The notes under the pieces: model-generated
What the model saw: the letters and a program-made list of their open reading frames with translations, nothing else
Told to the model about the DNA's origin: nothing
Databases searched by the model: none
From: Escherichia coli
GTDB taxonomy: Bacteria > Pseudomonadota > Gammaproteobacteria > Enterobacterales > Enterobacteriaceae
Reading direction: 5' to 3' (one strand)
Length of the DNA: 64,000 bases
NCBI RefSeq assembly: GCF_003790525.1
Contig: NZ_CP033635.1
Shown here: positions 22,375 through 59,788 of the stretch, piece by piece
How the letters are laid out: each line of letters opens with the position of its first letter
How positions within the stretch are numbered: the stretch's first letter is position 1
Translations under genes and position numbers: made by a program

Positions 22375-22405
22375 CTAAAAAGCGCCTGCGGGCGCTTTTG
22401 CATGG
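22375..22405 (+). terminator. serS terminator hairpin containing the prophage attL core (22385-22399)
   Basis: aaaaagcgcctgcgggcgctttt; CCTGCGGGCGCTTTT repeated at 59774-59788. Confidence 0.7.
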
Positions 22406-22554
22406 TACTTAACTATATGAAAATAAATGGATTTTATTTTCATGTGTCCAGATAATGTCCATCTTTGAAGAAAAAAGTCCACAATACTGACGTTGTGGGC
22501 TTTTCTTTTTCCTGATGGTGTCGTGCCGTCAGTGCAACGAACCAAAGGGAGGGG

Positions 22555-22782
22555 ATGTTGATGTTGTTTTCCCTTCGCACCAGCTTTAAAGCCACTCTTG
22601 TTAACGATGATGGTACGCCACGGATCACGGCCGAGGTGAGGAATGTGACACCTGATGATATCGGGAAGGTGGCGGAACTTGTCAGGGATGTTTTTGGTAC
22701 TCCTTCCGGTACCTGCCGTTCAGACTCTGCGGCCAGGGTTGACAGGCAGGATGTTAACGCCGGGTGGCTTACGCGCCTCTGA
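22555..22782 (+). CDS. Hypothetical 75-aa protein at the attL end
   Basis: Strong SD GGGAGGGG before the ATG; preceded by a terminator hairpin. Confidence 0.35.
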   Translation: MLMLFSLRTSFKATLVNDDGTPRITAEVRNVTPDDIGKVAELVRDVFGTPSGTCRSDSAARVDRQDVNAGWLTRL

Positions 22783-22932
22783 ATGATGATGCCCTCACTG
22801 GTGAGGGTGACAAAAAAGCCCTCTCAATGGCGGGCAAATCTGGTTTTTTGTTTTGTCTCTACAGGGAAAGGGCGCCATATCGGCCCACCCCAACAACCGG
22901 ATAGCGGGGAATTTCTCCCCCGCTGCGGTTTC

Positions 22933-23073
22933 TTACGGTTTACACTGCAAGAACGCCGCAAAACGCGCTCCCCAGATATCAAAGCTGAATTCACATAACG
23001 AATCGTGGACCATCCAGATGACCAGGGTTATTGTCAGGCATAAAATGCCAACAATAATCGTTTTTTGCGGTAT
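22933..23073 (-). pseudogene. Hok/Gef-family toxin paralog with ATA in the start position
   Basis: Frame gives IPQKTIIVGILCLTITLVIWMVHDSLCEFSFDIWGARFAAFLQCKP; same length and context as the intact copy at 24938-25078. Confidence 0.45.
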
Positions 23074-23173
23074 AGCGCTTGCTCCTTTTACAAAGAGGCG
23101 CTAACCTTCCACTTGTCACGGTAGGAAGGGTCAGGCCTCGGTTAAACACAGATGTTTTCCGGGGCCTTTCCAC
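22991..23173 (-). CDS. Mok-like reading frame overlapping the hok-like ORF
   Basis: ORF overlaps the hok paralog in another frame; paralog of 24945-25178. Confidence 0.3.
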   Translation of the reverse strand: MERPRKTSVFNRGLTLPTVTSGRLAPLCKRSKRYTAKNDYCWHFMPDNNPGHLDGPRFVM

Positions 23174-23283
23174 ATCCGGCCTTCAGGTTTTCCCTCCGGC
23201 CATCAGCCGAAAGGCACCCGTTTCTTTTTGTTGCGGCAATATTTCAGGTGTCAGTTGGGGTGGGCTGTATCTTGTCTGATGCA

Positions 23284-23382
23284 TAAAAAAATGCCCGCGC
23301 TTTGGCGGGCAAAAGACAAGACTTTTCGTTTGTATATCATGGATAATGGACACCCCTTCCTGTTGTCAGGTGGCAGGCACCC
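23284..23382 (-). ncRNA. Candidate small RNA or leader unit X1
   Basis: Minus-strand -35 TTGAGA (23412-23417), 17-bp spacer, -10 TAGATT (23389-23394); ends at hairpin plus U-run. Confidence 0.3.
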
Positions 23383-23486
23383 GTGGTTAATCTACTGTTT
23401 TTGTGCTTTTGTCTCAACCCTGAAGTTTTCATGGAAAATCAGGGTTGCTTCATATGTGCCAGGAAGGTGCGGCTATGATAACTGCC

Positions 23487-23578
23487 AAAAAAAGCCCGCT
23501 TTCCGGCGGGCAAAACAGCAATGTGAGTTGTCTGTCATTGATACTGGACAGCCTTCCTGTTGTCAGGTGGAAGGTACC
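23487..23578 (-). ncRNA. Candidate small RNA or leader unit X2
   Basis: TTGAGA-N17-TAGATT on the minus strand, then terminator. Confidence 0.3.
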
Positions 23579-23930
23579 CGTGGTTAATCTACTGTCTTTG
23601 TGCTTTTGTCTCAACCCTGAAGTTTTCATGGAAAATCAGGGTTGCTTCATGTGAACCAGGAAGGTGAGGCGATGGTAACCGCCAAAAAAATGCCCGCTTT
23701 CCGGCGGGCAAAACAAGGAAGTACGGATCATGTATTATTGATTACGAGGCATTCCACCATGCCCACGTTTAATTTAGCTAGTTTTCATTTTATTCACAAT
23801 ATAGTTACTTATCATATTTATGAACAAAACTGTAATTTCATCTATAGGTATAAGTGATTTGCATTAACATGTTTCTTCTGTATTGCTGTTGGTTTTCCGA
23901 TGCTGATATTTATGATACATTCAGGGGCAA

Positions 23931-24002
23931 ATGAGGTTGTTCCACAGAAACGATGTTGAGATATTTCTGCTCCAGAAAGGACAAGCTAAAAAAATAAAGT
24001 GA
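23931..24002 (+). pseudogene. Disrupted paralog (Y1) of the small protein at 25756-25971
   Basis: MRLFHRNDVEIF... then premature stop; conserved AT-rich upstream region. Confidence 0.3.
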
Positions 24003-24135
24003 AATTATGATATGTCAGGGATGTTCAGGCATGTCAGTGTCTTATTAATAAACTCGTTGCTGCTGTAATAACACCAAAAAAATCAAAGCATAATCTGCAT
24101 GTTGTTCCTGATGACCCAATAACCACAAAAGAATA

Positions 24136-24228
24136 AAAAAATGCCCGCTTTCCGGCGGGCAAAACAGCAATGTGAGTTGTCTGTCATTGATACTGGACAC
24201 CCTTCCTGTTGTCAGGTGGAAGGCACCC
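24136..24228 (-). ncRNA. Candidate small RNA or leader unit X3
   Basis: TTGAGC-N17-TAGATT on the minus strand, then terminator. Confidence 0.3.
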
Positions 24229-24586
24229 GTGGTTAATCTACTGTCTTTGTGCTTTTGGCTCAACCCTGAAGTTTTCATGGAAAATCAGGGCTGCTTTGTG
24301 TGCGCCAGGGAAGGCGCCTCGATGGCAGGCGCAAAAAAAATGCCCGTGCTTCGGCGGGCAAAATAAGGAAGTACAGGTTACATGTTATTGATAAAGTAGC
24401 ATTGCTCTGTCCGTCTTTAATCTAACGAGTTTTGAGTTTTTTCACAATATTGTTACCTGTCATGTTATAGATGAAACTGCAATTTCATCTATAGGTATAA
24501 ATGATTTGTATTAATGTGTGTCCACTGTTTGTCTGCTTTCTGGTTTTCAGTTGACTGTGTTTCTGATGAATTCAGGAGGTTGTCTT

Positions 24587-24685
24587 ATGAGGCTGTTCCA
24601 CAGAAACGATATTGAGATTGAACTGCATTTCTCCTCCGGTGAGGATAAGGTTAAATCATTGTTGATGAAAAAAACAAAGATTTAA
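24587..24685 (+). pseudogene. Truncated paralog (Y2) of the small protein at 25756-25971
   Basis: MRLFHRNDIEIELHFSSGEDKVKS then divergence and stop; SD AGGAGG. Confidence 0.3.
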
Positions 24686-24815
24686 TTTATTGATATAAAG
24701 GATTTGTATCAGCGTATGTCCACGCAGTGACCACATTTTCGAGAGGTAGAGTAAGCCCGCAACATTGCGGGCTTTGTCTTATAGTCTGATCACTGTTTCA
24801 AGTCGGTGAGGACAC

Positions 24816-24852
24816 CAAAAAGAAAACCCGCAGTTTTTATGCTGCGGGTTTG
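24816..24852 (-). terminator. Intrinsic terminator downstream of the hok-like gene
   Basis: Minus strand aaacccgcagcataaaaactgcgggttt plus T-run. Confidence 0.6.
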
Positions 24853-24937
24853 TTGTTCATGTCTGTGAGATAGGGTGCCTTATCGACCTTACCCTGGCAA
24901 CCGATTGACGGGGGATTGCTCCCCCGTCGCGGTTTCC

Positions 24938-25078
24938 TTACTTCTTACATTGTAAGAACGCCGCAAACTCCGCTCCCCAGAAGCTCATCCGTATTTCGCA
25001 CAGCGAACCGTGCAATATCCAGATGATGAGGATTGCCGTCACGCAGAACGTGATGGCCGTAAGCGATTTTTGCGACAT
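24938..25078 (-). CDS. Hok/Gef-family type I toxin homolog (46 aa)
   Basis: MSQKSLTAITFCVTAILIIWILHGSLCEIRMSFWGAEFAAFLQCKK; TM helix plus SLCEIR...AAF as in Hok; SD AAGGAG. Confidence 0.65.
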   Translation of the reverse strand: MSQKSLTAITFCVTAILIIWILHGSLCEIRMSFWGAEFAAFLQCKK

Positions 25079-25178
25079 AGCACTTGCTCCTTTTCCGGAG
25101 AGGCGCTAACCTTTCACTTGTCAAGGTAATGCGGTTAGGGCCTCGGTTAAACAGAAATGTTTTCCGGGGCCTTTCCAC
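24945..25178 (-). CDS. Mok-like reading frame overlapping the hok-like ORF
   Basis: ORF track; overlaps the hok homolog in another frame. Confidence 0.3.
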   Translation of the reverse strand: MERPRKTFLFNRGPNRITLTSERLAPLRKRSKCYVAKIAYGHHVLRDGNPHHLDIARFAVRNTDELLGSGVCGVLTM

Positions 25179-25314
25179 ATCCGGCCTTCAGGTTTTCCCT
25201 CCGGCCATCAGCCGAAAGGCACCCGCGCGTAATTTAACTGTTTCTTTTTGTTGCGGCAATATTTCAGGTGTCAGTTGGGGTGGGCTGTATCTTGTCTGAT
25301 GCATAAAAAAATGC

Positions 25315-25400
25315 CCGCGCTTCGGCGGGCAAAAAACAAGACTTTTCGTTTGTATATCATGGATAATGGACACCCTTCCTGTTGTCAGGGGGAGGTACCC
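25315..25400 (-). ncRNA. Candidate small RNA or leader unit X4
   Basis: -35 and -10 hexamers kept (TTGAGC, TAGATT) while the 17-bp spacer differs from X1-X3. Confidence 0.3.
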
Positions 25401-25755
25401 GTAGCTAATCTACTCACTTTGTGCCCGCAGCTCAACCCTGAAGTTTTCATGGAAAATCAGGGCTGCTTTGTGTGCGCCAGGGAAGGCGCCTCGATGGCAG
25501 GCGCAAAAAAAATGCCCGCTCTCCGGCGGGCAAAACAATGATCTACGTCACATTATATTGATAACCGGGCATTCCTCCATGCCCATTTTTAATTTAGCCA
25601 TTTTTCATTTTGTTCACAATATAGTTATCTATCATATTCATGAATGAAATTATAATTTCATCTATAGGTATAAATGATTTGTGTTAATATGTTTCTCCTG
25701 TCTAACTGTTTTCTCATTTTTCGATACTAGTATTTCTGATATATTCAGGGGGCGT

Positions 25756-25971
25756 ATGAGATTGTTCCGAAGAAACGATATTGAGATTGAACTGCATTTC
25801 TCCTCCGGTGAGGATAAGGTTAAATCAATAAAGGTGAAACTAAGACATGCCCGGGATGTTCAGGCGTGTCAGTGTCTTATTGATGAACTCGTTGCTGCCG
25901 GAGGAACGCCAAAAAAACAAAAATATAATCTGCACGTGGTTCCTGATGACCCCATAACCACAAAAGAATAA
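25756..25971 (+). CDS. Hypothetical small protein (72 aa), intact member of the three-copy 'Y' family
   Basis: MRLFRRNDIEIELHFSSGEDKVKS...; SD AGGGGG; AT-rich upstream region. Confidence 0.45.
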   Translation: MRLFRRNDIEIELHFSSGEDKVKSIKVKLRHARDVQACQCLIDELVAAGGTPKKQKYNLHVVPDDPITTKE

Positions 25972-26113
25972 AAAAATGCCCGCTTTCCGGCGGGCAAAAA
26001 ACAATTTAGGTCATATTTCATCATGGATAATTAAATACTTGCCCGTGGTTGCGGGAAAGTATCTGCCGTTAATCTACTTGCCTTATGATGTCCTCTCAAC
26101 CTGATTATTGTTC

Positions 26114-26365
26114 TTAAATATCAAGATTAATCTGAGTATTCCCCCTGTGAGATCCCGGAAAATCTTCCCACGGTATCCGCTCTGTACCCTGCGGCGACGG
26201 GGCGCGTTTTGATGTGAATTTGTTAAAACCCTCCAGTGTGGTAAAGCCGATCCCGCATTCGAGGTTATTGCACTGGTAGTACTTCAGGCGAACTGTGCCT
26301 GAATCATTTTCATTGCGACTGGTGCGGATACGTGCGGATGCACCGCATAGGGGACAACGGAACAT
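26114..26365 (-). CDS. ogr: Ogr/Delta-type zinc-finger late-gene activator
   Basis: MFRCPLCGASARIRTSR...YYQCNNLEC resembles P2 Ogr C2C2 finger. Confidence 0.85.
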   Translation of the reverse strand: MFRCPLCGASARIRTSRNENDSGTVRLKYYQCNNLECGIGFTTLEGFNKFTSKRAPSPQGTERIPWEDFPGSHRGNTQINLDI

Positions 26366-26408: not shown

Positions 26409-27500
26409 TTATCCGCCTGAATCTGCTATCCATTCGGGGATTTTCGCTTCCAGCTCCAGTTGTGTGGTGAAGCCGCTTTCATCTATGATGTGCTCCACCC
26501 TGGCAATAATCCAGTCCTGATTGTCCACCTCGCTTTTAAAACCTGTTACCCTGCCGTGCATTTCGGGATACAGGTCGGCACGACCCCGTGCCAGAGTGAT
26601 GGAGAATGCCGCTGCTCCCCGCTGTAACTCCTGCCACTTTGCCGCAGCTGCACGTCGTGCGGTTTCTTCATTCTGGTAAGTCCTGCGCAGAACGTAGACG
26701 TTCCCTTCCGCGCCTTCCATGTAATCACCCTCCCGGCTGCTGCTCTTCTCCTGTTTCTGTTTCCCGGCTTCCCTGCGTCGCTTCACGTTCACTTTTTTCT
26801 TGTGCCCGAACTTCAGATCGAGCCAGTGCGCCCGGACCCCCGTATACGCATCACGGTCAGCAATGCGAAAGCGGTGACTGTCGCCGCTGCTGCGGGTAAT
26901 GGCGAACGAAGGCAGGGCTCTTCCGTCCGGCCCGGTTCCGCCACCCGGCAGAATGAATAACAGGCTGCCGTTTTTTACGGTGGCAATCGCACCCAGCATT
27001 TCAGCCATGCGGGTCAGGAAGGATATATCGCTCTCTTCGGTCTGGTCAGCGTGGTCAATTTCGATATCCATGAGGATTTCGCTTATCTGTGTCTTCAGGC
27101 CGTAGCGGTGAGCGATGGCTGACACAACCTGTTTTACGGTCACGTCGTGCCAGGATACCTCCCGCCTCACGTTGAACTCTTCCCGAAAATCTGCGCTGCT
27201 GGCGGTGATGATCAGTTTATCTGGAGGTCCTTCCCACGCAACCTCATCAACGACGTAGGTGCCCTTGTTAACCAGTGATTCTCCTCGCCAGCCAATCATC
27301 ACTCTCAGGCGTGCGCCACGTGGTGGCAACTGTAACTGCCCGTCCGTATCGTCAAGGGTGAGGGTGACGCGGTCTGCCTCAAAGGCCCGGTTATCCGTCA
27401 GGGTCAGCGTCATGAGTCGCTCTGTGAGGTTTGCCAGTGTGTTGTTGTTGATGGTGATGTCGATATCCGGTGACGGAACGGTAACTGACAGCTCTTTCAT
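26409..27500 (-). CDS. D: P2 gpD-like tail protein
   Basis: TLTDNRAFEADRVTLTLDDTDGQ...SWHDVT...REGDYMEGAEGNV resemble P2 D; start at MKELSVT with SD AGGAGA. Confidence 0.85.
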   Translation of the reverse strand: MKELSVTVPSPDIDITINNNTLANLTERLMTLTLTDNRAFEADRVTLTLDDTDGQLQLPPRGARLRVMIGWRGESLVNKGTYVVDEVAWEGPPDKLIITASSADFREEFNVRREVSWHDVTVKQVVSAIAHRYGLKTQISEILMDIEIDHADQTEESDISFLTRMAEMLGAIATVKNGSLLFILPGGGTGPDGRALPSFAITRSSGDSHRFRIADRDAYTGVRAHWLDLKFGHKKKVNVKRRREAGKQKQEKSSSREGDYMEGAEGNVYVLRRTYQNEETARRAAAAKWQELQRGAAAFSITLARGRADLYPEMHGRVTGFKSEVDNQDWIIARVEHIIDESGFTTQLELEAKIPEWIADSGG

Positions 27501-27567
27501 GGTGTTCTCTCCTGGTGCGTTCTGTAATGGTTTCATGCACCGCAGCGGCGTTGAATGGCTGTTTTGT

Positions 27568-27585
27568 TGTCGCTGTCAGGAGACA
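27568..27585. promoter_or_regulatory. Ogr-type late-promoter dyad TGT-N12-ACA between divergent D and FI
   Basis: TGTTGTcgctgtcaggagACAACA, about 76 bp from the D ATG and 85 bp from the FI ATG. Confidence 0.5.
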
Positions 27586-27661
27586 ACATCAAAGGGGTGA
27601 GATTACCGCGTGTGTGGGTAATGATTACGCAAAATCAACCAGCCAGACAAGGGTGAAACAT

Positions 27662-28945
27662 ATGAGTGAAACACGCTTTCATGGTGCGCGCGTAAGGGAA
27701 AGTACCGGCCTTGCCACCGCCATTAATGATGTGGATTCCAGTGTTATTGGTATTGTGGCTACGGCAGATGACGCGGATGAAACTCTGTTCCCGCTGAACA
27801 AACCCACACTGCTGACCCGCGTCAGTGATGTGCTGGGTAAGGCCGGCACAAAGGGGACGCTTTACAAATCGCTTAAGGCTGTCGCCGACCAGGTGAGCAC
27901 GAAGGTGATTGTGGTGCGCGTTCCTGATGCCAGTTCTCAGGGCGCCCCGGATACAGGAGTTACATCATTCGGTCATCTGGATCCTGAAGACAGGGCATTT
28001 TTTGGTATTGATGAGTCTGAAGATGCACATCCTGTATACCCACACAAAACGCAGGACCAGTATGTCATTGGTGGCACGGATGGCGACGGTAATTATACCG
28101 GTATGTATGCACTTCTGATAGCTGAACAGGATGATGCCATCGGTTACCGTCCGCGCATCATCGCAGCTCCCGGACTGGATACTGAAGCTGTCACAAAATC
28201 CCTGTGTGTAATTGCAGAAAAACTTCGCGCATTTGTCTACGCGGGCTGTCACAACTGCAAGAAGCCCGCCGATGCAATCAGCTACCGCGCCAGATTTAAC
28301 GAGCGCGAACTTATGCTGGTCTGGCCGGACTTCATCGCCCATAACCCGAAATCCGGCGCTAATGAGGTCTTCCCGGCTGTGGCGTACGCCTGCGGTTTAC
28401 GTGCACGTATTGACCACGAACAGGGCTGGCATAAATCGCTGTCCAACGTGCCGGTAAGAAATGTGCTGGGTATTTCCAGCCCGGTGTTCTGGTCCCTTCA
28501 GTCCGAAGACAGCGATGCCAACAATCTCAACAACAAGGAAATCACTACCATCATTTGCCGTAACGGTTTCCGCTTCTGGGGCAACCGTACGCCGGAAACG
28601 AAGGCGTATATCTTTGAGGTGTACACGCGAACCGCTCAGGTGCTGGCTGATTCCATTGCGGAAGCGCAGTTTGAAACGATTGATGCCCCGCTGACCCCTG
28701 CTAATGTGAAAGACGTGTTAAGCGCAATTCGCGCAAAACTGGATGCGCTGGTTACGTCAGGACGTCTCATTGGTGCGGAGTGCTGGTATGACGTGGTGGA
28801 TAACAGCACCACGGAACTTCGTCAGGGACGCGTGCGTATCCGCTACAAGTACACGCCCGTTCCGCCGCTTGAGGATATGGAACTTTACCAGGCGTTTACT
28901 GATGAATTCTTTGGTCCTGCATTTGCGACGCTTGGAGGTGCTTAA
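27662..28945 (+). CDS. FI: Tail sheath protein (P2 FI-like)
   Basis: MSETRFHGARVRE...DETLFPLNKPTLL...KGTLYKSLKAVADQ resembles P2 FI. Confidence 0.85.
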   Translation: MSETRFHGARVRESTGLATAINDVDSSVIGIVATADDADETLFPLNKPTLLTRVSDVLGKAGTKGTLYKSLKAVADQVSTKVIVVRVPDASSQGAPDTGVTSFGHLDPEDRAFFGIDESEDAHPVYPHKTQDQYVIGGTDGDGNYTGMYALLIAEQDDAIGYRPRIIAAPGLDTEAVTKSLCVIAEKLRAFVYAGCHNCKKPADAISYRARFNERELMLVWPDFIAHNPKSGANEVFPAVAYACGLRARIDHEQGWHKSLSNVPVRNVLGISSPVFWSLQSEDSDANNLNNKEITTIICRNGFRFWGNRTPETKAYIFEVYTRTAQVLADSIAEAQFETIDAPLTPANVKDVLSAIRAKLDALVTSGRLIGAECWYDVVDNSTTELRQGRVRIRYKYTPVPPLEDMELYQAFTDEFFGPAFATLGGA

Positions 28946-29463
28946 TGGCCGTACCAAAAAATCTCAGGGTGTTCACGCTGTTTACTGACGGGGTGAACCA
29001 GATTGGCAGGGTGACCGGCTTCACGCCCCCCAAACTGACCCGTAAAACGGAAGCCTATCGCGGTGGTGGTATGGCCGGCGCGGTGAATATCGACCTTGGT
29101 CTGGATGACGGCGCGCTGGATGCGAGTTTCACCATGGGCGGGCCGACCCGCGAACTGTTCCTTAAGTACGGCGGCACGATCGACGGTACGCTGCTGCGCT
29201 TTGTCGGTGAGTACTACAACGATGAAGAGCAGAGCGACCTGTATGAAATTGAGCTTCGCGGCCGCGTGACGGAAATTGATACGGGGGAGGCAAAACAGGG
29301 TGAGGTCACGTCTCACACCTATGCGGTCAGGAGTACCTACTACAAACTCAGCATTAACGACCGTCCGGTGCTGGAGATTGATTTACTGAACCACATCGAA
29401 CGCAAGGACGGCAAAAACGTCTTCCCGGACCGCGTGCGCTCGGCGATTGGTCTTGGTGGTTAA
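28945..29463 (+). CDS. FII: Tail tube protein (P2 FII-like)
   Basis: 172 aa directly after the sheath gene. Confidence 0.8.
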   Translation: MAVPKNLRVFTLFTDGVNQIGRVTGFTPPKLTRKTEAYRGGGMAGAVNIDLGLDDGALDASFTMGGPTRELFLKYGGTIDGTLLRFVGEYYNDEEQSDLYEIELRGRVTEIDTGEAKQGEVTSHTYAVRSTYYKLSINDRPVLEIDLLNHIERKDGKNVFPDRVRSAIGLGG

Positions 29464-29513
29464 TGTTTCCCACGGCGGCGCGCGGCGTCGCCCCCTGATT
29501 TGAGGTTTTATGC

Positions 29514-29876
29514 ATGAAAGAAAATCCGGTTGTTGCCCCTGTTACTGACGGTGCTGATGCGGCGGACGTGACCAGTGAGCGCGGCGTGACGCTGAAAACG
29601 CCCCTTGTGCTCGGTAACAAAAAAATCACGTATGTGGAAATCACGCCTGCTGTACAGCAGGCCGGTTCACTGCGCGGGCTGTCACTGCTTGACGTGCTGA
29701 ACATGAAAACGGACGCGATGTTTGAGTTACTCCCGCGCGTCACTTCGCCGCGACTGGACGAGGTTCTGCTTAAGCGCATGGGGTCCGCTGATTTTATTCA
29801 GCTGTGCGGGGTGGCGGTTAATTTTTTGGCCGGTCAGGACTCTGGCGGGAAGAGCGGGGCGGCGACGGCAGGCTGA
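29514..29876 (+). CDS. E: Tail assembly chaperone (P2 E-like); E+E' product by -1 frameshift would extend to about 30040
   Basis: Position between tube and tape measure; slippery heptamer near the 3' end. Confidence 0.7.
   Translation: MKENPVVAPVTDGADAADVTSERGVTLKTPLVLGNKKITYVEITPAVQQAGSLRGLSLLDVLNMKTDAMFELLPRVTSPRLDEVLLKRMGSADFIQLCGVAVNFLAGQDSGGKSGAATAG
29822..29828 (+). promoter_or_regulatory. Candidate -1 programmed frameshift heptamer T_TTT_TTG (E/E')
   Basis: In-frame AAT TTT TTG; -1 frame continues about 70 codons to TGA at 30038-30040. Confidence 0.55.
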
Positions 29877-30026
29877 TAACCGTCGTGCCCTTTGAGCACA
29901 TTGAAGACTTTGTGGCGGATATCGCCGTTATTTTCAACTGGTCTCCCGCTGAAATCTTCCTGATGGATCCCGGCGAGGTGGTCGCCTGGCGTGAGCGGGC
30001 GGCCCTTCGCAGCGGGAACGCAGAGC

Positions 30027-33000
30027 ATGAAAACGCTTGATATACGGGTCGCCTTCAGCGCTGTTGACAGGCTGACCCGTCCCACCGAAAACGCCCGTCG
30101 CATGATGGGCCAGCTTGGCGACTCCATACAGAGAACGCAGGGTGCGATCAAAAACCTGGAACGCTACGCCCGTTCATTTGATCGCGCCCGCGAGGCTGCA
30201 AACAAGGCCGGAAACGGCATTGTCAGGGCGCAACGCCAGTTAAGCGCACTTCAGCAAATTCAGCGCGCCGGAACCGTGCTGTCTGACAAACAGAAAAAGC
30301 TGATGAACGATTTGAGCCTCAAACTTGAGCGTCTCAATGAGGTCCGTGCGCGTGAAGTTCAGCGAATGCGCGAACTGGGTGGTGAGCTGCGGCGCCACGG
30401 TATTGCGCTTTCCGGCAGTGACAACACCATTCAACAGGCCATACGGCGAACACAGCAATACAACGACCAGCTGGAACGCGAACGGCAGGCGCTGGCACGT
30501 GTCACGCAGGCACGCCAGCAATATTCCCGTGCTCAGGAGACGGCGGGAAAACTTAAAACGGTCGGACTTACGGCGGTTGGTACGGCGGCGGCAGGCGGCT
30601 ATGCGGCCGGACGTTTCCTGCAACCGGCGGTCAGTTTTGGTAAGGAGATGTCACGCGTCCAGGCGCTGACCCGTATTGACAAAAACAGTCCGCAGTTTAA
30701 GGCGCTGCGCGAACAGGCCATTAAGCTGGGCTCTGAAACGCAGTTTACCGCCGGTGATGCTGCCAGCGGTCAGGCGTTCCTTGCCATGGCCGGCTTCACA
30801 CCACAGGCCATACAGGCGGCGCTACCCGGCGTGCTTGATCTGGCAATGGCTGCAGGGATGGACCTGGGACAGACTGCCGATATCAGTTCGAATATCCTCA
30901 CACAGTTTGGTCTGTCCGCTGACCAGATGGATCGCGTGGGTGACACGCTGGCCGCCACCTTCACACGAACCAATACGGATCTCCGTTCACTGGGTGAAAC
31001 CATGAAGTACACGGGTCCGGTTGCAGCTTCACTTGGCCTGTCCCTTGAACAGGCGGCAGCCATGACGGGTGTCCTTGGCAGTGTGGGGATCCGTGGAAGT
31101 GATGCAGGTACGGCGCTGCGTGCCAGTCTGTCACGTCTGGTTGATCCGCCGAAGGCCGCTGCAATGGCACTGAAAGAGCTTGGCGTGGAGACGCAGAATG
31201 CTTACGGGAACATGCGCCGGATGGAAAATATCCTGAATGAGCTGTACCAGGCCACCCGAAAATACGGTAATGCCGCGCAGGTCTCCTTTTTCAGGGCTAT
31301 TGCCGGGCAGGAGTCCTATGTTTCCCTGATGAATCTTGTCACTGCGGCGGGGGAAAATAATCTTCCCCGTCTTACGCAGGAGATTGAACTGGCCACCGGG
31401 GAACTTAATCACACTGCCCGTGTTATGGCTGATAACCTGGACGGTGACCTGAAATCACTGAACAGCGCATGGGAAGGACTGCGTATCCGTGTCGCTGACC
31501 TCGTTGACGGGCCGCTGCGTTCTGTCACGCAGTCGTTCACCCGGGTTATTGCGAAAGTCACCGCGCTGGCTCAGGCGCACCCTGAACTGACAAAACAACT
31601 GCTGATTGCCGGTGGTGTACTGCTGGCTGCGGTTGCGGCCATGGGGGCGCTGTCACTTGCCACTGGTGTGTTGATGGGGCCGCTGGCAAAACTGCGTCTT
31701 GGGTTTGCCCTGCTGACCGGCACATCCGGCCTCGGTCGTGCGCTGCCGTTACTGACGCAGCTGCGCGGCGTACTCGGTGGTCCGCTGGGCGGTATCGGTG
31801 GCTGGCGCGTGCTGTTTGTCGGTATCACCTCCGGTGCCGGACGGTTTGCTGCACTGCTGGGCGTAGTTGCGGGGCGGCTTCGTGGTGTGCAGGCGGGACT
31901 TGGCGCGCTGCGTGGTGGTCTGCTGGCTGCGTTCACTTCACCTGGCGGCGCACTGATTTCACTGGGGCGCGGTATCGGAATACTGGCGCTCAGACTGTCA
32001 GGTCTGCCCGCACTGTGGGGGATGGTGAGTGGTGCGGTGGGCGCACTTGGCGGGGCGCTGGGTTTTCTGTTAAGTCCGGTGGGCCTTGTGGTGGCGACAC
32101 TGGTCGGTGCGGCAGTGCTTATCTGGCGGCACTGGGACCAGCTGAAGGCTGTCGTGGGCGGGTTCTTGTCCGGCCTGTGGCAGGGGCTTACGCCACTGCG
32201 CGAGGCTGTGGCACCACTGGGACCGCTGTTTGAGTATGTCGGGCAGACAATCGGGCGTGTGTGGCAGTGGTTCGTGGATTTGTTCGCGCCGGTAAGCACA
32301 ACAAAGGATGAGCTGGACAAGTGCACGGAAGCCGGGCGTACGTTCGGGCAGAAGGTAGGGGAGTTTATCAGCAATCTGGTGACCGGTCCGGTTACGCTGC
32401 TGATTGACTCATTAACCCGGGTGCTGGAAAAACTCGGGCTGATTCCGTCGGCGGTTGAGCGCGCCCGGAAAAAGGCGGAAGAACTAAAACAGAAGGAGTT
32501 GCTGAACGAGAAAGCTGCCATGCTTCTGGCGGATGTTAACGTCATTAATCCGCCGAAAAAGGACGAGGATAAAAAAGACGGCGAAAAACCCAAAGGGGGG
32601 CAACCACCCCTGACGGGGGAGAATACCGGCACTATGCGCCGCCTGAACAAAATCGTCGATAACACCGGTGGTCTGCTGGATGAGGCGAAACAGGCGAAAA
32701 AACGCGCTGGTCCCGGCGATATTATCTTTAAAAACCTGCCGGAAGCGCTGGCCGTTCGTGGTGAGTGGAAGGAGGAACGCTTTAACCGAGCAGCTTCCCT
32801 GTTACCGGGTAGTGTCAGTGAGCCACCTGTCAGACTGCCGCAGGTGCCGTCGGTCAGTGTGCCTTCGTTGCCACCGCTGCCAGCGCCACCGCCTGTCAGT
32901 GTTTCGCCGCTGATATCCACCACGGCGAACGTGTCGCCGGTCGTGAAGCCGGTGGTGTCCGTGAATAATGTGCCGGTTATTCCTCCGGTCGTCCGTCCGG

Positions 33001-33338: not shown

Positions 33339-33349
33339 GAGTACCTCTC

Positions 33350-36754: not shown

Positions 36755-36757
36755 GGT

Positions 36758-38210: not shown

Positions 38211-38213
38211 GAT

Positions 38214-45214: not shown

Positions 45215-45284
45215 TGTCGGGCCCTCGTGATGATCGTTTGTCTCATGATGGCAAAACGGGGCAGGGACAGACAAAGTGCGTTTG

Positions 45285-45302: not shown

Positions 45303-45368
45303 AACACCGGGCATGGCAGGAGGCCTGTAAGGGGTGAGTAAACTGCCTGAATCACATGAGGGGGAGAA

Positions 45369-50365: not shown

Positions 50366-50793
50366 TGTTGTTTCCTCCCGTTCTGTGCTGGTCTGGCGAA
50401 TGAATTGCGTTGTGGTGAAAAGACCATTCGCGCCAGCGCGGCCTTGTGATTGACTGTGTTCAGTGTTCTGGCCAGTCCGCCGTTGTGCCTGCGTGTCCGC
50501 TCTTCGTGATATCTCTGCATGATTTTCCCGGCAGGCGTGCACGGCTCCGGTTCCTCCGGCGAACGGCGCGGACGAATGACGACAGTCCAGCTATGGCTCT
50601 CGCTGCCCGGCCGCCTGTTGAGTATGTCGGCGATGGTGGTCTCCGTGGTGCGATCGGGGCTGACTATCGTGATTTCCAGCTCGTCGCCCGGTTGTGGCCT
50701 TGTGGCAGGCCTGAACAGTGTCAGCACCGGCATACGCTGGCGCATGATGGCCTCAAACTGTGGGCGCTGCATGGTGCAGCAAAATCGCGTCAT
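50362..50793 (-). CDS. Hypothetical protein (143 aa), translationally coupled to A
   Basis: Start overlaps the A stop. Confidence 0.45.
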   Translation of the reverse strand: MTRFCCTMQRPQFEAIMRQRMPVLTLFRPATRPQPGDELEITIVSPDRTTETTIADILNRRPGSESHSWTVVIRPRRSPEEPEPCTPAGKIMQRYHEERTRRHNGGLARTLNTVNHKAALARMVFSPQRNSFARPAQNGRKQQ

Positions 50794-53300
50794 GCTCCCG
50801 CCTCCACTGGCTGCTCTGTGATGATGTGACGGGCTGACTCATCCCAGTACGCTGTTCCCCCGTTATCCAGACGCACACGGGCACCGTTACGCACGGAGAT
50901 GATGGCCGCGTCAGGCAACTGCACACCCAGCGCATCAAGTTCGCGGGCGATTTGCGTGTCCGTCGCGGTATCCGCAGGCACGACAATCCCCACCCTTACA
51001 GGGGTGTCAGATGCCGGTGTGGTGTCGTTTTGTCCGGTTTTTGCGCCCGACGGCTGATTTTTAATCTGATTACGCAGTTTTCTCCGATCGCCCCTGCTTA
51101 ACGTATTCAGCCAGCTTTCCAGGTTCTCTTCGGGAAGCGTCAGTCGTCCGGGGTCCTGCCTGTTTTCTGGTCCGTGATTGTCTGTTTTTTCATCCCGGGG
51201 ACAGTTATTGCCACGAGTCCAAGGGGCGACGGGGTCGCCCTGAAGGTCAAAACCCTCGCCCGTGCGGTTGTCTGGTATTGTTTCTTTTTTAACCAGTTTC
51301 CACTCGTCCGGATGGGTGCATATGGTGTACCGCTCTCCGAGCGACGGGGCGCAGATTCCGTAGATACGTTGAGGGAATTCACCGTAGTCGTTGGCTTCGT
51401 CTGCGGTTTCGTATGCGGTGCGGACCAGATACTGGTTGCGCGGAATGAGCACACCACCCTGTTTCATGATGTAGGTGGCAAAACATCCCACATCTGCGGC
51501 AGCCATAATGGCGTCAATATCGTCATGATCGAGGTGCTTCGGTGATGCCGGGTTGCGCTCCATCTGGCTTGCAAGGCGGCGGAGTTCACGCCATACCTGG
51601 CGGGGCGGAATGCCGAAAAACTGGAACTGACGGATGCGGTGAAGGCTTGCCCAGGCAATGGCGTTCTCCACGGTTTCCGCCATGGTTTTCCCGGATTCCT
51701 CATCAACGTAAGGTTTTCCGGTTTTCGGATCATTGTTGTGGAAAGCGCTGGCGTCCAGGTTCTTACCGATATAGGTTGCGATATAGCTTGCCGGTGTGCC
51801 TTTTTCCGGGTCTATCTTCTCGCATTTAAAGCGCGGTGAAATATCGTCCCCCAGTTCGTGGCGATCTGATTTAATTGCTGCTTCGCGCATAATTTCGATG
51901 ATGCGCTCTGCGTTCTCCGGGGAAGTGAATACCAGCATATGCCAGTGTGGCGTGCCGTCATGGTGTGGCTCAGCGGTTCGCACGCCGTACCAGCCCAGCC
52001 CCTCTTTTTTTATTTTTTTTCTTACGGCTGCGAAGAAGTCGTAAACCAGATAATCACTGGCATCTCGTACTGTGGCACCGTTGTATTTCGGGTTCAGGCT
52101 GCCGTTCTCGTTCACGCTGTGAAAGCGGGAAGGGGTGGTTACTGTGATGAAGAATGCGACGTCAGCCCGTAATTCGGCCACCATCTCCATCCCTCTGACG
52201 CAGACCATCATTTCATTGCGGCGGTTGCGTGGATTACCCAGGCCAGCCCAGTACACGTCCTCCAGACTCAGGCGCTCGCCGTCTTCGTTTTCAATATCCC
52301 AGCTTTTGAGAAAGTCACAGGTGCGCTGGCGCTTCTCGCGGAACTCCAGTAGTGACTCATGGCTGATATAGGGGGATTGTTTACGTGACACTCTGCCGGC
52401 GGCGCGCAGTAACTCCTCCCGCCAGAGATCGGCGACGTGGCGTAACTGGTTGTTCCACCAGGTCGCGCAGGTGATGCGCAGTACCGCACCCGGAACCCGT
52501 TCAGGGTCCGGCGGTGTGCGTCGGTTGTGCCTGATTTCGAGTTCCGGCCAGTATGGCGGGACCATGCCCAGAATTAAGGCTGTGCGTGCCACCTTCTGGT
52601 AGGCCAGCAGCCAGATAACCGGGCTGTCATTATCCTTGCCTGTCCGTTCAAGAACTTCATCACATATGCGTTCAAATTCTGCGGCGAATGCCTGGGCTGT
52701 CAGTGTGGCGATGCGCTGGATTTCGTCACGGGTGAGTTGCGGCAGTGTGAGCAGTTCTTCAAGGCGATGGCGCACGACGGTGGTTTTGAATGCCGGCGTT
52801 GCAAAGCGGTCGTTAACCCTTTCAATACGTTTCAGGCGCGCACGCAGTCCACGGCGAACGAAATTATCGGCCACGTATGCGCTGTTGTTTTTTACACCTT
52901 CACTGCGGGCACTTTGCTGTTTCCGGTTCAGTCGTGCCAGATCACGGATCAACACACTGGCAAGAAACGAGGGCAGGGTGCGAAGTTCGGCTATCGCCTC
53001 CGATACCGCCGTTGGCGGATTTTCGCGTCTGTGTCGTGCCAGCTTATCCAGCCTTATCTGCCGCTCTTCGTCCCGGTGAAGGTGTGAATTAATTTGCTTA
53101 CCTTTGTCCGTGGTTGTCAGGAAGGCCACGGTTTCTTCATCCAGCCGGGCCTCAGTGCGAATGTCTTCGGTGAGGTAGTCACGGATTGCCCGTTGTAATG
53201 CGGTTGGCTTCTGCGGTAATGCTCTGCCGAATGTCTCAGGATCAATAACCGGCAGCGGGGCGTTCCACGGGTACGCCAGGTGCGTGTGGTGATGGCTCAT
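50790..53300 (-). CDS. A: Replication initiation protein (P2 A-like)
   Basis: 836 aa; position downstream of the regulatory genes. Confidence 0.85.
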   Translation of the reverse strand: MSHHHTHLAYPWNAPLPVIDPETFGRALPQKPTALQRAIRDYLTEDIRTEARLDEETVAFLTTTDKGKQINSHLHRDEERQIRLDKLARHRRENPPTAVSEAIAELRTLPSFLASVLIRDLARLNRKQQSARSEGVKNNSAYVADNFVRRGLRARLKRIERVNDRFATPAFKTTVVRHRLEELLTLPQLTRDEIQRIATLTAQAFAAEFERICDEVLERTGKDNDSPVIWLLAYQKVARTALILGMVPPYWPELEIRHNRRTPPDPERVPGAVLRITCATWWNNQLRHVADLWREELLRAAGRVSRKQSPYISHESLLEFREKRQRTCDFLKSWDIENEDGERLSLEDVYWAGLGNPRNRRNEMMVCVRGMEMVAELRADVAFFITVTTPSRFHSVNENGSLNPKYNGATVRDASDYLVYDFFAAVRKKIKKEGLGWYGVRTAEPHHDGTPHWHMLVFTSPENAERIIEIMREAAIKSDRHELGDDISPRFKCEKIDPEKGTPASYIATYIGKNLDASAFHNNDPKTGKPYVDEESGKTMAETVENAIAWASLHRIRQFQFFGIPPRQVWRELRRLASQMERNPASPKHLDHDDIDAIMAAADVGCFATYIMKQGGVLIPRNQYLVRTAYETADEANDYGEFPQRIYGICAPSLGERYTICTHPDEWKLVKKETIPDNRTGEGFDLQGDPVAPWTRGNNCPRDEKTDNHGPENRQDPGRLTLPEENLESWLNTLSRGDRRKLRNQIKNQPSGAKTGQNDTTPASDTPVRVGIVVPADTATDTQIARELDALGVQLPDAAIISVRNGARVRLDNGGTAYWDESARHIITEQPVEAGA

Positions 53301-54020: not shown

Positions 54021-54245
54021 CTCTGTAGTTGCAAGTTTTGAAAACTCACCATCCAGAGGTTGCAATTCTGGGTGGCGAGACGTACAGGGTTGCAACCACC
54101 GGCAACTACAGAAACCGGCCCGACCGAAGTCGGCCCCATACGCCCCGCCATAATTCTGGCGCGAAAAAGACGTGGCGATACGGTACGCACAAAAAAACCG
54201 CTGGCGCGGTTGTGCGCTGTAGTTGTCAGCGGGGGTTGCAATCCC
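54021..54245. repeat. Cluster of GTTGCAA(C)/TAGTTGCAA motifs in a 320-bp intergenic region
   Basis: Six copies in both orientations at about 54026, 54057, 54087, 54101, 54219 and 54233. Confidence 0.45.
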
Positions 54246-54332
54246 GGCACCCGTTTTATGAGGTGCAGCGGAAATGTAACCTGACTGATTGCGGCATGGC
54301 AAGCGGTTTTTTTGTGTGTGCATAGTGGTTAC

Positions 54333-57158: not shown

Positions 57159-57440
57159 TATTTATCTCCTGCGCTTATTTTTCCTTCTATGCAATCTTTC
57201 ATGAATAACAAATACTCATTGGCTTCCTCTTCCGTTTTTAATATTCTCTCCAGATAGAAATTCTGAAAGTGTATATAGACTTATGCTCCTACCTTTGTTG
57301 TGGCTATTATGTCTTTTGCTTTAAAGTGCAATGCGTCACTACTTCTGGAGGTTAATCTTTGTCTTGGTTTCATGTTGTTGTCTTCCTTTACTTGAATACT
57401 ATTGCGGAAATATAGCTACGAATGATTACGTTGTGTGCCT

Positions 57441-57647
57441 CTACCTGATGAGCCAGATGACAAACGCTGTAAGTCCCGCGCCAACAACTATTGGAAAAAG
57501 CCCTTTAGAATAAGCTGCGACGTAATGAACGTTGAGGACAATAAAACGTTCTTTTTGTCCTGTTAGCTTGCCAAGCAGATAAATCACTACTACGCCTAAT
57601 TCCAGGAATATAATGTTCAAAACGGCATTGATGATATTGCTGGTCAT
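57441..57647 (-). CDS. Small hydrophobic membrane protein (68 aa)
   Basis: Two predicted TM helices; follows the cox-like gene. Confidence 0.35.
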   Translation of the reverse strand: MTSNIINAVLNIIFLELGVVVIYLLGKLTGQKERFIVLNVHYVAAYSKGLFPIVVGAGLTAFVIWLIR

Positions 57648-57655
57648 TTTCGTGT

Positions 57656-58177
57656 TTAGCCGGGCTGGTTGTTTTTGAGTTGCTCCAGTTTTGAAACTCT
57701 GGGGGAGTAAACCTGCTTACCTTTAACGGTCTGGCAGTCCTCCTTGTTTGCCGGTGAAAACTTTCTTTTCTTGCGGTCGTACGTCCAGTAGCTTTTCCAG
57801 TTGTGCCACTCTGGCGGTTCGCACTCCAGTAGTTCGTCGGCTAGTTCGTCCCAGGCTTTGGCGTTAAACCACCATGTACCGTCTGACTTTTCATCTTCGG
57901 GATTTGAGCGCGTTTTGTGACCCGGCATCTGCCCGCGCTGAATGGCGGCGCGTAGCGCAGATTTTGTTACCCCCAGATAGGCAGCCCCTTTTTCCAGTGA
58001 CACAAGTCCTGCGACTGGGCCGTCCAGTCGTAGGGTTGCGCCCTTTTTGTAGGACGGTCTGGTTTTGGTTTCCAGGTGTTCGTTGTCGTTGGCAGCTTCA
58101 ATGAATTCATTGTCCGCGCCATCATCCTGAACCGGTTGAGCGCCAGATAACTCTTTGTCGGCAATAATCTCCCGCAT
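57656..58177 (-). CDS. Cox/Apl-like HTH excisionase-regulator candidate (173 aa)
   Basis: Divergent from the C repressor gene; HTH-like AYLGVTKSALRAAIQRGQMPGHK. Confidence 0.45.
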   Translation of the reverse strand: MREIIADKELSGAQPVQDDGADNEFIEAANDNEHLETKTRPSYKKGATLRLDGPVAGLVSLEKGAAYLGVTKSALRAAIQRGQMPGHKTRSNPEDEKSDGTWWFNAKAWDELADELLECEPPEWHNWKSYWTYDRKKRKFSPANKEDCQTVKGKQVYSPRVSKLEQLKNNQPG

Positions 58178-58280
58178 TTGTTATCCTCTTGCATTGGTGC
58201 GCTTGTTGCGCCTTTTGATGATTTTTGATGACTTGTAAAGATAATCGTACGGTTATCTTTTGTAGGAGATTAATCCCCAA
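58178..58280. promoter_or_regulatory. Divergent early promoter/operator (lysis-lysogeny switch) region
   Basis: Between cox-like and C genes; palindrome AGATAATCGTACGGTTATCT and direct repeats TGATGA. Confidence 0.45.
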
Positions 58281-58622
58281 ATGAGTATCTTGTCAATAGA
58301 CTATGCGAAAAAGTTGCGTTTGATACGCAAGACGGAAGGGCTAACTCAAAAGCAATTTGCTGATATTACAGGGTTATCTCTGGCAACTGTCAGGAATTAT
58401 GAGTCAGGGCAAAAGATCGCCAGAGCAAAGATTGTTGAGGCCGTCCTTCAAGTGGATCGGTTTGAAAAATATATGTTCTGGCTAATCAAAGATAAGACGC
58501 TACCTGTTGCCGGTCAGATCGCCCCGGCTCTCTCTCTTGATGGCTCCACGCAGTCGGAGGACGATCAGGTTTCAACCCGCAATACCCAAAAATCACCCCA
58601 ATCAGGCCGCAATGCTGGCTGA
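58281..58622 (+). CDS. C: Immunity repressor (P2 C-like)
   Basis: HTH LTQKQFADITGLSLATVRNYESGQ and GQIAPAL as in P2 C. Confidence 0.8.
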   Translation: MSILSIDYAKKLRLIRKTEGLTQKQFADITGLSLATVRNYESGQKIARAKIVEAVLQVDRFEKYMFWLIKDKTLPVAGQIAPALSLDGSTQSEDDQVSTRNTQKSPQSGRNAG

Positions 58623-58682
58623 CGCTGTATATTGAACGGGCGGCGTTCAGTAAGCAGGGGTTAACAGGTTTATCCGTCGGAG

Positions 58683-59687
58683 GTGCTGATCATGTCGATT
58701 AAGCAACTCAAAGACGGACGTTATCAGGTTGATGTAAGGCCTCAGGGGGCGGGAGGAAGGCGGATTCGTAAGATTTTCACCCTGAAATCAAAGGCGCAGG
58801 AATTCGAAAGATACGTTCTTCAGAATTTCCACAATAACCCGTGGCAGGCAAGGCCCGCCGATCAACGGCGGTTATCAGAACTGATTGAGGTGTGGTGGAT
58901 GCTTGATGGTCGTAATCAGGCATATGGTGATACCTACAGAACCAGACTGGAGAAGGTGATACGTGAAATGGGGGACCCGCGCGCCAGCCAGATGACACGA
59001 AAATTCGTGATTGAGTATCGCTCGGATAAGTTGCAGGCGGGACTGATGCCGTCCAGTATCAATCGCGACCTGTGCGCCTTATCTGCGATGTTTTCGTTGT
59101 TAATTGACGCGGAGGTTTATCATAACGAAAACCCTGTGCGCGGAATACGTAAACTCAAGGTTCAGAATACAGAAATGGCCTTTCTTTCAGATGACGAGAT
59201 TGATCGCCTTCTGAAACGGCTTGAGGGTGATGCACGACGCATTGCCATTCTGTGCCTTTCGACCGGGGCCAGATGGAAAGAGGCGTCAACGCTTCGCGGG
59301 GAACACATCGTGGGTAACAGGGTGACGTTCTTTAACACAAAGAACGGGAAATCGCGCTCGGTTCCTGTAGCTGATTCCGTTGTGCCGTTAATTAAAACCC
59401 GCCGGACCGGCCTGTTATATCAGGTTGATTATCTCAGTTTCAGGGAGATCCTTCAGGAGGTGAAGCCCGACTTACCCAAAGGGCAGGCCACGCATGTCAT
59501 GCGGCACACGTTCGCCACGCATTTCATGATGAACGGCGGGAACATCGTCACGTTGCAGAGGATCCTGGGTCACGCCACGATTCAGCAAACGATGACGTAT
59601 GCGCATTTTTCACCGGACTTTTTACAGGATGCGATCAGCTTTAATCCGCTGGCTGAAAGTGTCCATAAACTGTCCATCGACCAGTAA
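58683..59687 (+). CDS. int: Tyrosine integrase (P2 Int-like)
   Basis: KQLKDGRYQVDVRP...AILCLSTGARW...HVMRHTFATHF...LGHATIQQTMTYAHF close to P2 Int. Confidence 0.9.
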   Translation: MLIMSIKQLKDGRYQVDVRPQGAGGRRIRKIFTLKSKAQEFERYVLQNFHNNPWQARPADQRRLSELIEVWWMLDGRNQAYGDTYRTRLEKVIREMGDPRASQMTRKFVIEYRSDKLQAGLMPSSINRDLCALSAMFSLLIDAEVYHNENPVRGIRKLKVQNTEMAFLSDDEIDRLLKRLEGDARRIAILCLSTGARWKEASTLRGEHIVGNRVTFFNTKNGKSRSVPVADSVVPLIKTRRTGLLYQVDYLSFREILQEVKPDLPKGQATHVMRHTFATHFMMNGGNIVTLQRILGHATIQQTMTYAHFSPDFLQDAISFNPLAESVHKLSIDQ

Positions 59688-59773
59688 TTATTTGTGATAA
59701 TTTGCTCCCCTTGTTTTTGTTTACTTATTGAAAAATAAGGAAATCAGCAAGAGGAGTAAGTACCGTTAAATCT

Positions 59774-59788
59774 CCTGCGGGCGCTTTT
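59774..59788. other. attR core CCTGCGGGCGCTTTT
   Basis: Identical 15-mer at 22385-22399. Confidence 0.7.

Follow-up and report, generated by a model that had tools for sequence, protein, structure and literature searches.

The region between serS and dmsA carries a prophage of 37,389 bp, with ends at positions 22385 and 59788 of the window, by which we mean the whole 64-kb stretch of E. coli DNA analyzed here. Taken as a whole, the explanation we consider highly probable is that a P88-related temperate phage of the P2 type entered the chromosome by site-specific recombination, in which a tyrosine integrase recombined the phage attP with attB in the chromosome, and that this attB was a bidirectional intrinsic-terminator hairpin with serS on one side and the putative sRNA STnc130/dmsA on the other. 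Strand exchange would have occurred inside the shared sequence CCTGCGGGCGCTTT, which makes up the hairpin loop and 3' arm, leaving the core duplicated at both ends of the insert. With AAATCT in the 5' arm of attP against AAAGCG in attB, the complete hairpin would go wholly to attL, and attR would be left with a T-run and no stem. At attL the hairpin, now followed by a shorter U-run, may still end serS, and the phage brings a terminator of its own about 75 nt inside the junction.

The two junctions and their surroundings consist of the following features.

21064 to 22356, plus strand: serS (serine-tRNA ligase), assigned by open reading frame (ORF) and annotation; host gene, with its terminator as the putative target
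22377 to 22399, unstranded: attL hairpin, in which the host A-run and 5' arm (22377 to 22384) are joined to the core
22385 to 22399, plus strand: attL core copy CCTGCGGGCGCTTTT, comprising hairpin loop, 3' arm, and four T
22473 to 22504, unstranded: phage-borne terminator-like hairpin, predicted to be bidirectional, just inside attL
59700 to 59762, plus strand: long hairpin with imperfect pairing, in the interval from the int stop codon to the core
59774 to 59788, plus strand: attR core copy, with phage DNA (AAATCT) at the 5' arm position and no predicted hairpin on either strand
59984 to 62428, plus strand: dmsA (DMSO reductase subunit A), with its start codon 196 bp past the end of the attR core

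The 15-bp core, which the original prediction had placed at both junctions, is present in the window as exactly two perfect copies, both on the plus strand, and a third match is absent even when one mismatch is allowed. Identity is confined to these 15 bp; the left flank of the core reads AAAGCG at attL and AAATCT at attR, and the right flank reads GCATGG at attL and TTTGTC at attR. The predicted attP joint is GTTAAATCT-CCTGCGGGCGCTTTT-GCATGG. To reconstruct attB (815 nt), we set a single core copy between 400 nt of flanking sequence on each side. Alignment to a prophage-free serS-dmsA region, proposed in the original prediction as the check that could refute it, was run, and the reconstruction matched the uninterrupted region at 100% over all 815 nt in E. 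coli SMS-3-5 and in no fewer than 11 further complete genomes.

A repeat of this length could in principle be a chance match, or a target duplication of the transposition type, with different real boundaries or a different mechanism, and the host-side 20-mer is indeed generic terminator sequence that occurs in more than 120 unrelated genomes. However, the core is expected by chance in 0.01 copies in the window (two or more copies arose in none of 100 shuffles), joining the flanks yields an exact empty site, a P2-type integrase and paired arm sites accompany the junctions, the core stands at both ends in independent lineages, and no transposase is present. We rejected a chance or transposition origin, to which we give almost no credence, on the core count, the empty-site match, the arm sites, and the sharing of the core across lineages, and retain site-specific integration as the explanation.

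The recombination functions lie at both ends of the prophage.

22419 to 22440, unstranded: AT-rich element GAAAATAAATGGATTTTATTTT in the P' arm
22445 to 22461, plus strand: P' arm-type integrase sites TGTCCAGATAATGTCCA, two direct repeats
58692 to 59687, plus strand: P2-type tyrosine integrase (int), with ATG 58692 as the likely start of an ORF that opens at 58683
59660 to 59676, plus strand: P arm-type integrase sites TGTCCATAAACTGTCCA, within the 3' end of int

The integrase aligns with P2 Int at 51% identity over 321 aa (E 2e-131), including the ARW (RWxE), HxxRH, and Y motifs, and matches the Pfam families Int_N (3.9e-30) and Phage_integrase as well as phrog_1. Integrases from other prophages at serS-dmsA are about 90% identical to it. 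Judged from sequence, it is a P2-type enzyme, with a predicted tyrosine recombinase catalytic domain that has the conserved R, H-x-x-R, and Y and is homologous to P2 Int. Exact matches to TGTCCA-N5-TGTCCA occur in the window only on the two phage arms, in the same orientation, and the TGTCCAGATAATGTCCA arm repeat is the reverse complement of tgTGGaCa, the P2-type arm consensus (PMC3448106). The AT-rich element of the P' arm, which is identical in a divergent prophage found at this site in ST131-type genomes (hereafter the ST131-type phage), may serve for DNA bending or for binding of an accessory protein. Three attP variants (AAAGCG, AAATCT, and AAACCT) all retain CCTGCGGGCGCTTT, which therefore bounds the crossover region; comparison of these variants narrows the predicted crossover to 14 bp.

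Every statement about terminators made here refers to predicted folds, not measured transcripts. Joining the flanks had been predicted to restore a single hairpin and T-run between serS and dmsA, and the rejoined attB indeed folds once on the plus strand, as AAAAAGCGCC-UGCG-GGCGCUUUUUUU (-16.3 kcal/mol, z -4.2) followed by seven U. The minus strand folds at -14.1 kcal/mol with five U. The GC-rich stem-loop, preceded by an A-run and followed by a U-run whichever strand is read, suggests that this hairpin is a bidirectional intrinsic (Rho-independent) terminator, a feature absent from the original prediction. At attL, both strands retain the whole stem (-15.6 kcal/mol on the plus and -12.8 kcal/mol on the minus strand), in agreement with the earlier claim that attL regenerates a terminator-like hairpin. 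That claim holds, with the refinement that the U-run 3' of the hairpin on the serS side has four residues compared with seven at attB; because of this shortening, the attL terminator is probably weaker than that of attB. The ST131-type phage has a terminator at the position equivalent to that of the phage-borne hairpin inside attL, with a different stem sequence. At attR of the present lineage, the hairpin is predicted to be lost on both strands and a T-run without a stem is left, since attP has AAATCT where attB has AAAGCG. The long hairpin between int and the core is kept in the ST131-type phage with other paired bases.

The dmsA side of the insertion overlaps a candidate RNA gene.

59759 to 59893, minus strand: match to Rfam RF02084, STnc130 (putative sRNA), 126.9 bits compared with a gathering score of 55

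The 3' terminator of STnc130 is the attB hairpin read on the minus strand. In the copy at attR, the last 15 nt, and with them the 3' arm of the RNA, are phage DNA, which leaves two of the eight terminal pairs non-canonical. It is possible, though we lean against it, that the true target is the 3' end of this sRNA, as for phages that use tRNA, tmRNA, or sRNA genes, rather than the serS terminator, in which case lysogeny would truncate or extend the sRNA. The high Rfam score, the position of the core in the terminal hairpin of STnc130, and the broken pairs and lost fold at attR all point in this direction, as does the prediction that STnc130 would run antisense into int, where the first minus-strand terminator-like site is at 59359-59342. 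However, STnc130 carries no firmer label than "putative sRNA" in its published listing (PMC3632133), the minus strand upstream of 59893 showed no sigma-70-like promoter, and the score may reflect a conserved intergenic region alone. In addition, the commoner ST131-type phage retains the hairpin, so terminator loss is not general among phages at this site. We continue to treat the shared bidirectional terminator as the target.

A regulatory consequence can also be imagined, although we consider it very doubtful. With AAATCT in place of AAAGCG, attP would deprive the dmsA side of the terminator that it shares with serS, and lysogeny would rewire transcription at attR: the repressor-int transcript (made in lysogens) could extend into the dmsA regulatory region, and STnc130 could continue antisense into int. 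If true, control of anaerobic respiration would be linked to prophage integrase expression, a link that the ST131-type phage avoids. The contrast between attR sites that keep and that lose the hairpin could serve as a natural experiment on insertion into a bidirectional terminator and the expression of neighboring host genes.

Between its ends, the prophage contains genes and RNAs for late gene activation, virion structure, lysis, replication, and lysogeny.

26114 to 26365, minus strand: ogr/Delta-type zinc-finger late activator
26409 to 33838, both strands: tail module, with gpD (minus), then sheath, tube, E, tape measure, and U (plus)
29991 to 33338, plus strand: tape measure, an uninterrupted 1115-aa ORF
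33909 to 45355, minus strand: tail-fibre assembly, tail fibre, baseplate, lysis, head completion, small terminase, major capsid, and scaffold
34520 to 36754, minus strand: tail fibre
40811 to 41356, minus strand: endolysin
43210 to 44349, minus strand: major capsid
45369 to 47120, plus strand: large terminase, forming with the portal a block from 45369 to 48175
47120 to 48175, plus strand: portal
50790 to 53300, minus strand: P2 gpA-type replication endonuclease (phrog_91, E 2.5e-241)
54068 to 54266, minus strand: C4 antisense RNA (54068 to 54155) and isrK-like RNA (54191 to 54266), upstream of a "derepression protein" gene
57656 to 58177, minus strand: Cox-family DNA-binding protein, the presumed excision directionality factor and switch protein
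58281 to 58622, plus strand: HTH immunity repressor (C-like), transcribed toward int

PHROG matches and the annotation of a near-identical copy identify the P2-type genes Q, P, O, N, M, L, X, lysis, baseplate, H/G, FI/FII, E, T, U, D, ogr, and A. This gene set and the P2-type integrase bear out the original reading of 22385-59788 as a prophage. The structural and replication genes would place it in Peduoviridae (P2-like phages), and the 37.4-kb element looks complete. The cox gene is encoded divergently from the repressor; it is annotated by PGAP as "Cox family DNA-binding protein" in a 99.9%-identical copy, matches phrog_23196, and has a weak excisionase-domain match.

A fixed defective prophage, integrated by the same route but no longer able to excise or form particles, seems to us unlikely. 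We looked for the free attP form in three kinds of collection. Deposited phage genomes gave three matches, all ending at the core, which are prophage predictions still attached to dmsA. In IMG/VR, the exact attP junction had no matches and a looser pattern found one contig, which was attR. In metagenome assemblies, a pattern excluding attB, attL, and attR had no matches, and a pattern of core plus P' arm recovered 10 contigs, all 10 with attL next to serS. We note that absence of attP from databases does not show inactivity. Likewise, the P2 cos sequence was not found within three mismatches, but the cos of this lineage may differ. Decay does occur in the lineage, as the tape-measure gene of the closest relative is truncated; the small terminase and a tail gene are pseudogenes in the ST131-type relative, and the left arm of the prophage itself is crowded with decayed duplications. 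Against these signs of loss, all essential genes examined in the window, including the tape measure, are uninterrupted ORFs with full-length family matches, both pairs of arm sites and both cores are exact, and 99.9%-identical copies are found in strains from different hosts and countries. We favor a temperate prophage that would still be able to excise.

The decayed duplications form a single block.

22555 to 26110, minus strand: low-GC left-arm cargo, a decayed tandem array

Within this array are two hok/sok modules (with an intact Hok ORF at 24938-25078) and eight terminator hairpins, together with five units of 93-98 nt that each run from promoter to terminator. A small ORF is also present, as one intact and two truncated copies (25755-25971, plus strand). 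A covariation analysis of the left-arm RNA folds found one compensatory pair among 41, with copies too few and too similar. The units were considered as AgvB-like anti-sRNAs and rejected, as the CACAACA motif is absent and the analogy is loose only.

The serS-dmsA region is an ordinary, recurrent integration site. It is uninterrupted in 5077 of 5426 complete E. coli genomes, and 344 (~6%) contain the int-attR-dmsA junction; the prophage family is present in most ST131-type genomes sampled. A 21-mer from attR had no matches in a collection with one genome per species, and the host-side 20-mer, a generic terminator sequence in more than 120 unrelated genomes, was uninformative as a host-range marker. 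A copy in NZ_CM148325.1 matches the present prophage at 99.9% identity, and 25 genomes of poultry and human origin contain the left arm of the prophage, both of which fit recent mobility. We found no description of the serS-dmsA attachment site in the searchable literature, and several deposited "phage" records of this family are mis-bounded, with host dmsA included. Exact ends, attB, core, and arm sites can now be annotated for a prophage family at about 6% of complete E. coli genomes.

Compared with P2, the integration module has the same gene order (int, C-type repressor, and divergent cox) and places attP next to int. It also shares the integrase, at the 51% identity given above, and paired P2-class arm repeats (TGGACA) flanking a short core (PMC3448106). 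P2-type integrases use an intergenic target rather than a tRNA gene (PMC3448106), and the target here is also intergenic. The differences from P2 are the core sequence (15 bp here) and chromosomal site, a Cox protein of 173 aa compared with 91 aa, and the 3.7-kb cargo array between ogr and att.

P88, of the genus Xuanwuvirus (Peduoviridae), gave the best nucleotide matches in the head, replication, and tail-sheath/gpD regions (78-81% identity), and the tail genes FI-FII-E-T-U are likewise inverted relative to P2. However, only ~10-38% of each prophage half aligns with P88, and neither the int/attP region nor the left-arm units have a match. Phage genera are delimited at roughly 70% nucleotide similarity over the full length. 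With 78-81% identity over only ~10-38% of each half, the prophage would fall outside Xuanwuvirus.

The ST131-type prophage (e.g., NZ_CP023844.1, 947.3-986.0 kb; deposited as PV468777.1 and ON470599.1) has in common with the present phage its attB, an integrase of ~90% protein identity, the arm-site layout, the AT-rich P' element, a terminator inside attL, and a hairpin after int. In contrast, its attP matches attB over 20 bp (AAAGCGCCTGCGGGCGCTTT), and because of this longer match the hairpin is kept at both junctions. Nucleotide alignment covers only ~30% of the genome, and the ST131-type phage encodes ParM and a tail fibre under invertase control and is without the left-arm array.

Integration of phages into DNA encoding symmetric RNA structures, such as the 3' ends of tRNA and tmRNA genes and intrinsic terminators, is a general principle. 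Examples among P2-like phages have been described (PMC3448106). As is general for integration of this kind, the crossover would lie in a dyad-symmetric element at gene 3' ends, and the phage brings a partial replacement copy. Here, however, the replacement is incomplete, with the serS-side U-run shortened and the dmsA-side stem not regenerated in the predicted folds. We see this phage as a further case of known P2-type integration with a small twist, the predicted loss of the dmsA-side hairpin in this lineage.

The 15-bp core CCTGCGGGCGCTTTT occurs exactly twice in the window, at 22385-22399 beside serS (attL) and 59774-59788 beside dmsA (attR), both on the plus strand, with no third match even at one mismatch (0.01 expected from shuffles). 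Identity ends at the 15-mer on both sides, with AAAGCG before the left copy versus AAATCT before the right, and GCATGG versus TTTGTC after them. To reconstruct the empty site (attB), we placed a single core copy between 400 nt from each flank (815 nt in all) and searched the construct against 5,426 complete E. coli genomes. In this refutation test, set beforehand, the construct matched the unbroken, prophage-free serS-dmsA region of SMS-3-5 and at least 11 other genomes end to end at 100% identity; the site was unbroken in 5077 genomes. As originally predicted, joining the flanks restored a single hairpin between serS and dmsA, AAAAAGCGCC-UGCG-GGCGCUUUUUUU (predicted fold -16.3 kcal/mol, z -4.2). 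The core duplication is thus confirmed and its interpretation supported: an intergenic terminator served as the target of ordinary P2-type integration, and the site is common in databases. We found no description of this attachment site in the searchable literature.

The insert spans 37,389 bp between cores, counting one core copy, and its GC content exceeds that of the flanks except in the left arm (43% GC), the phage DNA at 22555-26110 between attL and ogr. Genes were identified by PHROG, NCBIfam and Pfam searches and with the help of a 99.9% identical copy in NZ_CM148325.1, as annotated in RefSeq. Judged by homology, the insert holds a full P2-type gene set, which together with its P2-type integrase bears out the reading of 22385-59788 as a prophage.

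Predicted prophage genes
58692-59687: integrase (integration)
58281-58622: HTH repressor (immunity)
57656-58177: Cox-family protein, divergent from the HTH repressor
50790-53300: gpA-type replication endonuclease (replication)
45369-48175: portal and large terminase (head and packaging)
Also present: scaffold, major capsid, small terminase and head completion (head and packaging); lysis genes; baseplate, tail fibre, tail-fibre assembly protein, sheath, tube, E, U and D (tail); tape measure, an unbroken ORF of 1115 aa (tail); ogr (late control)

Over 321 residues, the integrase shares 51% identity with P2 Int (E 2e-131), and the catalytic motifs align. The 64 kb contains only two exact matches to TGTCCA-N5-TGTCCA (22445-22461 and 59660-59676), giving each phage arm one pair in the same orientation. 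The motif's reverse complement is tgTGGaCa, the arm-site consensus of P2-type integrases, which tend toward intergenic sites over tRNA genes (PMC3448106). A tRNA-Ser(GGA) gene in the upstream host region (7400-7487, minus strand) has no relation to the prophage junctions.

Of 5426 complete genomes, 344 carried the int-attR-dmsA junction. Most carriers have an ST131-type prophage (for example, NZ_CP023844.1), with 265 genomes at least 99% identical to its int region, while the window's own left arm was found in only 25 of the complete E. coli genomes searched. In the ST131-type prophage attL is AAAAAGCGCCTGCGGGCGCTTTA and attR is TTAAAGCGCCTGCGGGCGCTTTTTTT, so the core there measures 20 bp, with the entire stem inside it. 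Nine junction sets showed three versions of the phage-side core (AAAGCG, AAATCT, as in the window, and AAACCT), and CCTGCGGGCGCTTT was kept in all of them, so both strand exchanges must fall inside those 14 bp. In both types the P' arm, the phage DNA inside attL, runs from 20 variable nt through GAAAATAAATGGATTTTATTTT to the arm repeats.

Transcriptional anatomy was considered throughout as predicted structures. On the minus strand the attB hairpin folds at -14.1 kcal/mol followed by five U, and the element is predicted to be a bidirectional terminator. It is also the terminal hairpin of the Rfam family STnc130, which matches 59759-59893 on the minus strand (126.9 bits versus a gathering score of 55). 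In Salmonella, STnc130 lies next to dmsA and is listed only as a putative sRNA (PMC3632133). We found no sigma-70-like promoter match for it.

The hairpin predicted to re-form at attL did so as a stem, kept whole on both strands (predicted folds -15.6 and -12.8 kcal/mol); the U-run on the serS side, however, is cut from seven to four. The phage has its own bidirectional terminator-like hairpin (22473-22504) about 75 nt deeper inside the prophage, and we infer that this element shields the prophage from read-through out of serS. An equivalently placed hairpin with a different stem sequence is present in the ST131-type phage. At attR, no hairpin was predicted on either strand in the window lineage (-4.2 and -3.2 kcal/mol, z about 0) and the STnc130 terminator loses two of its eight pairs, whereas the ST131-type attR regenerates the full hairpin and seven T. 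In both lineages a long hairpin (59700-59762) separates the int stop codon from the core, with different paired bases in each. Beyond the original prediction, these comparisons bound the crossover to 14 bp, make hairpin retention at attR lineage-dependent, and add a predicted bidirectional terminator overlapping STnc130 and a putative phage backstop terminator just inside attL.

The sole sigma-70-like match near attR, TTGTCT-16-AATAAT (59790-59817, plus strand), lies 2 nt past the core on the dmsA side and is within chance expectation. Close to the attR core, phage GAGGAGTAAGT on its left (59751-59761) and host ACTCCTC... on its right (59817-59830) are complementary, so a read-through STnc130 transcript in the lysogen is predicted to fold back across the junction, although this pairing could be chance.

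All prophage genes examined were unbroken, both cores and both arm-site pairs were exact, and isolates from poultry and humans in several countries carried 99.9% identical copies, which together favour recent mobility. No excised attP junction (joined phage ends) was found in the phage collection, IMG/VR or the metagenome collection. Phage-collection matches to the predicted attP all ended at the core and were prophage predictions containing dmsA; IMG/VR and the metagenome collection held attR or attL junctions only. Three deposited 'phage genomes' (PV468777.1, ON470599.1 and ON470623.1) are mis-bounded prophage predictions that extend past attR into host dmsABC, and PV468777.1 includes about 18 kb more chromosome. 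No P2-type cos was recognised.

The left arm contains five promoter-like (TTGAGN-17-TAGATT)-to-terminator units with predicted RNAs of 93-98 nt.

Left-arm units, all on the minus strand
26064->25970
25400->25305
24228->24135
23579->23487
23382->23285

The units share a 5' stem-loop and a GCCCGCC..GGCGGGC+U7 terminator (eight copies in total), and their single-stranded middle has three versions. No Rfam family matched the unit and none of 50,697 phage records contained it; of 5426 E. coli genomes, only 30 carried it (2-8 copies per genome), without annotation. These may be phage sRNA genes arranged as an array. The arm also carries two hok/sok-type type I toxin-antitoxin modules (22900-23360 and 24880-25375) about 2 kb apart, with sok matches under the Rfam gathering score; in the right module a 46-aa Hok ORF (24938-25078, minus strand) is intact, and the left module has lost its ORF. 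A 72-aa ORF (MRLFRRNDIEIELHFSSGEDKVKS…; 25755-25971, plus strand) has a good ribosome-binding site and matches phrog_14142, a family of unknown function. Its two decayed, truncated tandem copies, located at about 23932 and 24589, show that the entire left arm expanded by serial duplication.

Elsewhere in the prophage, a C4 antisense RNA (80.1 bits) adjoins an isrK-like RNA (60.1 bits) at 54068-54266 on the minus strand, flanked by genes for a DNA-binding protein and a 'derepression protein'. The locus resembles an RNA-controlled antirepressor module of the P1/P7 immI style, within a P2-type phage. The nearest deposited phages, P88 and relatives, align with only 10-56% of each half of the prophage (78-81% identity), and we therefore consider the prophage P2-like (Peduoviridae) and only loosely P88-like.
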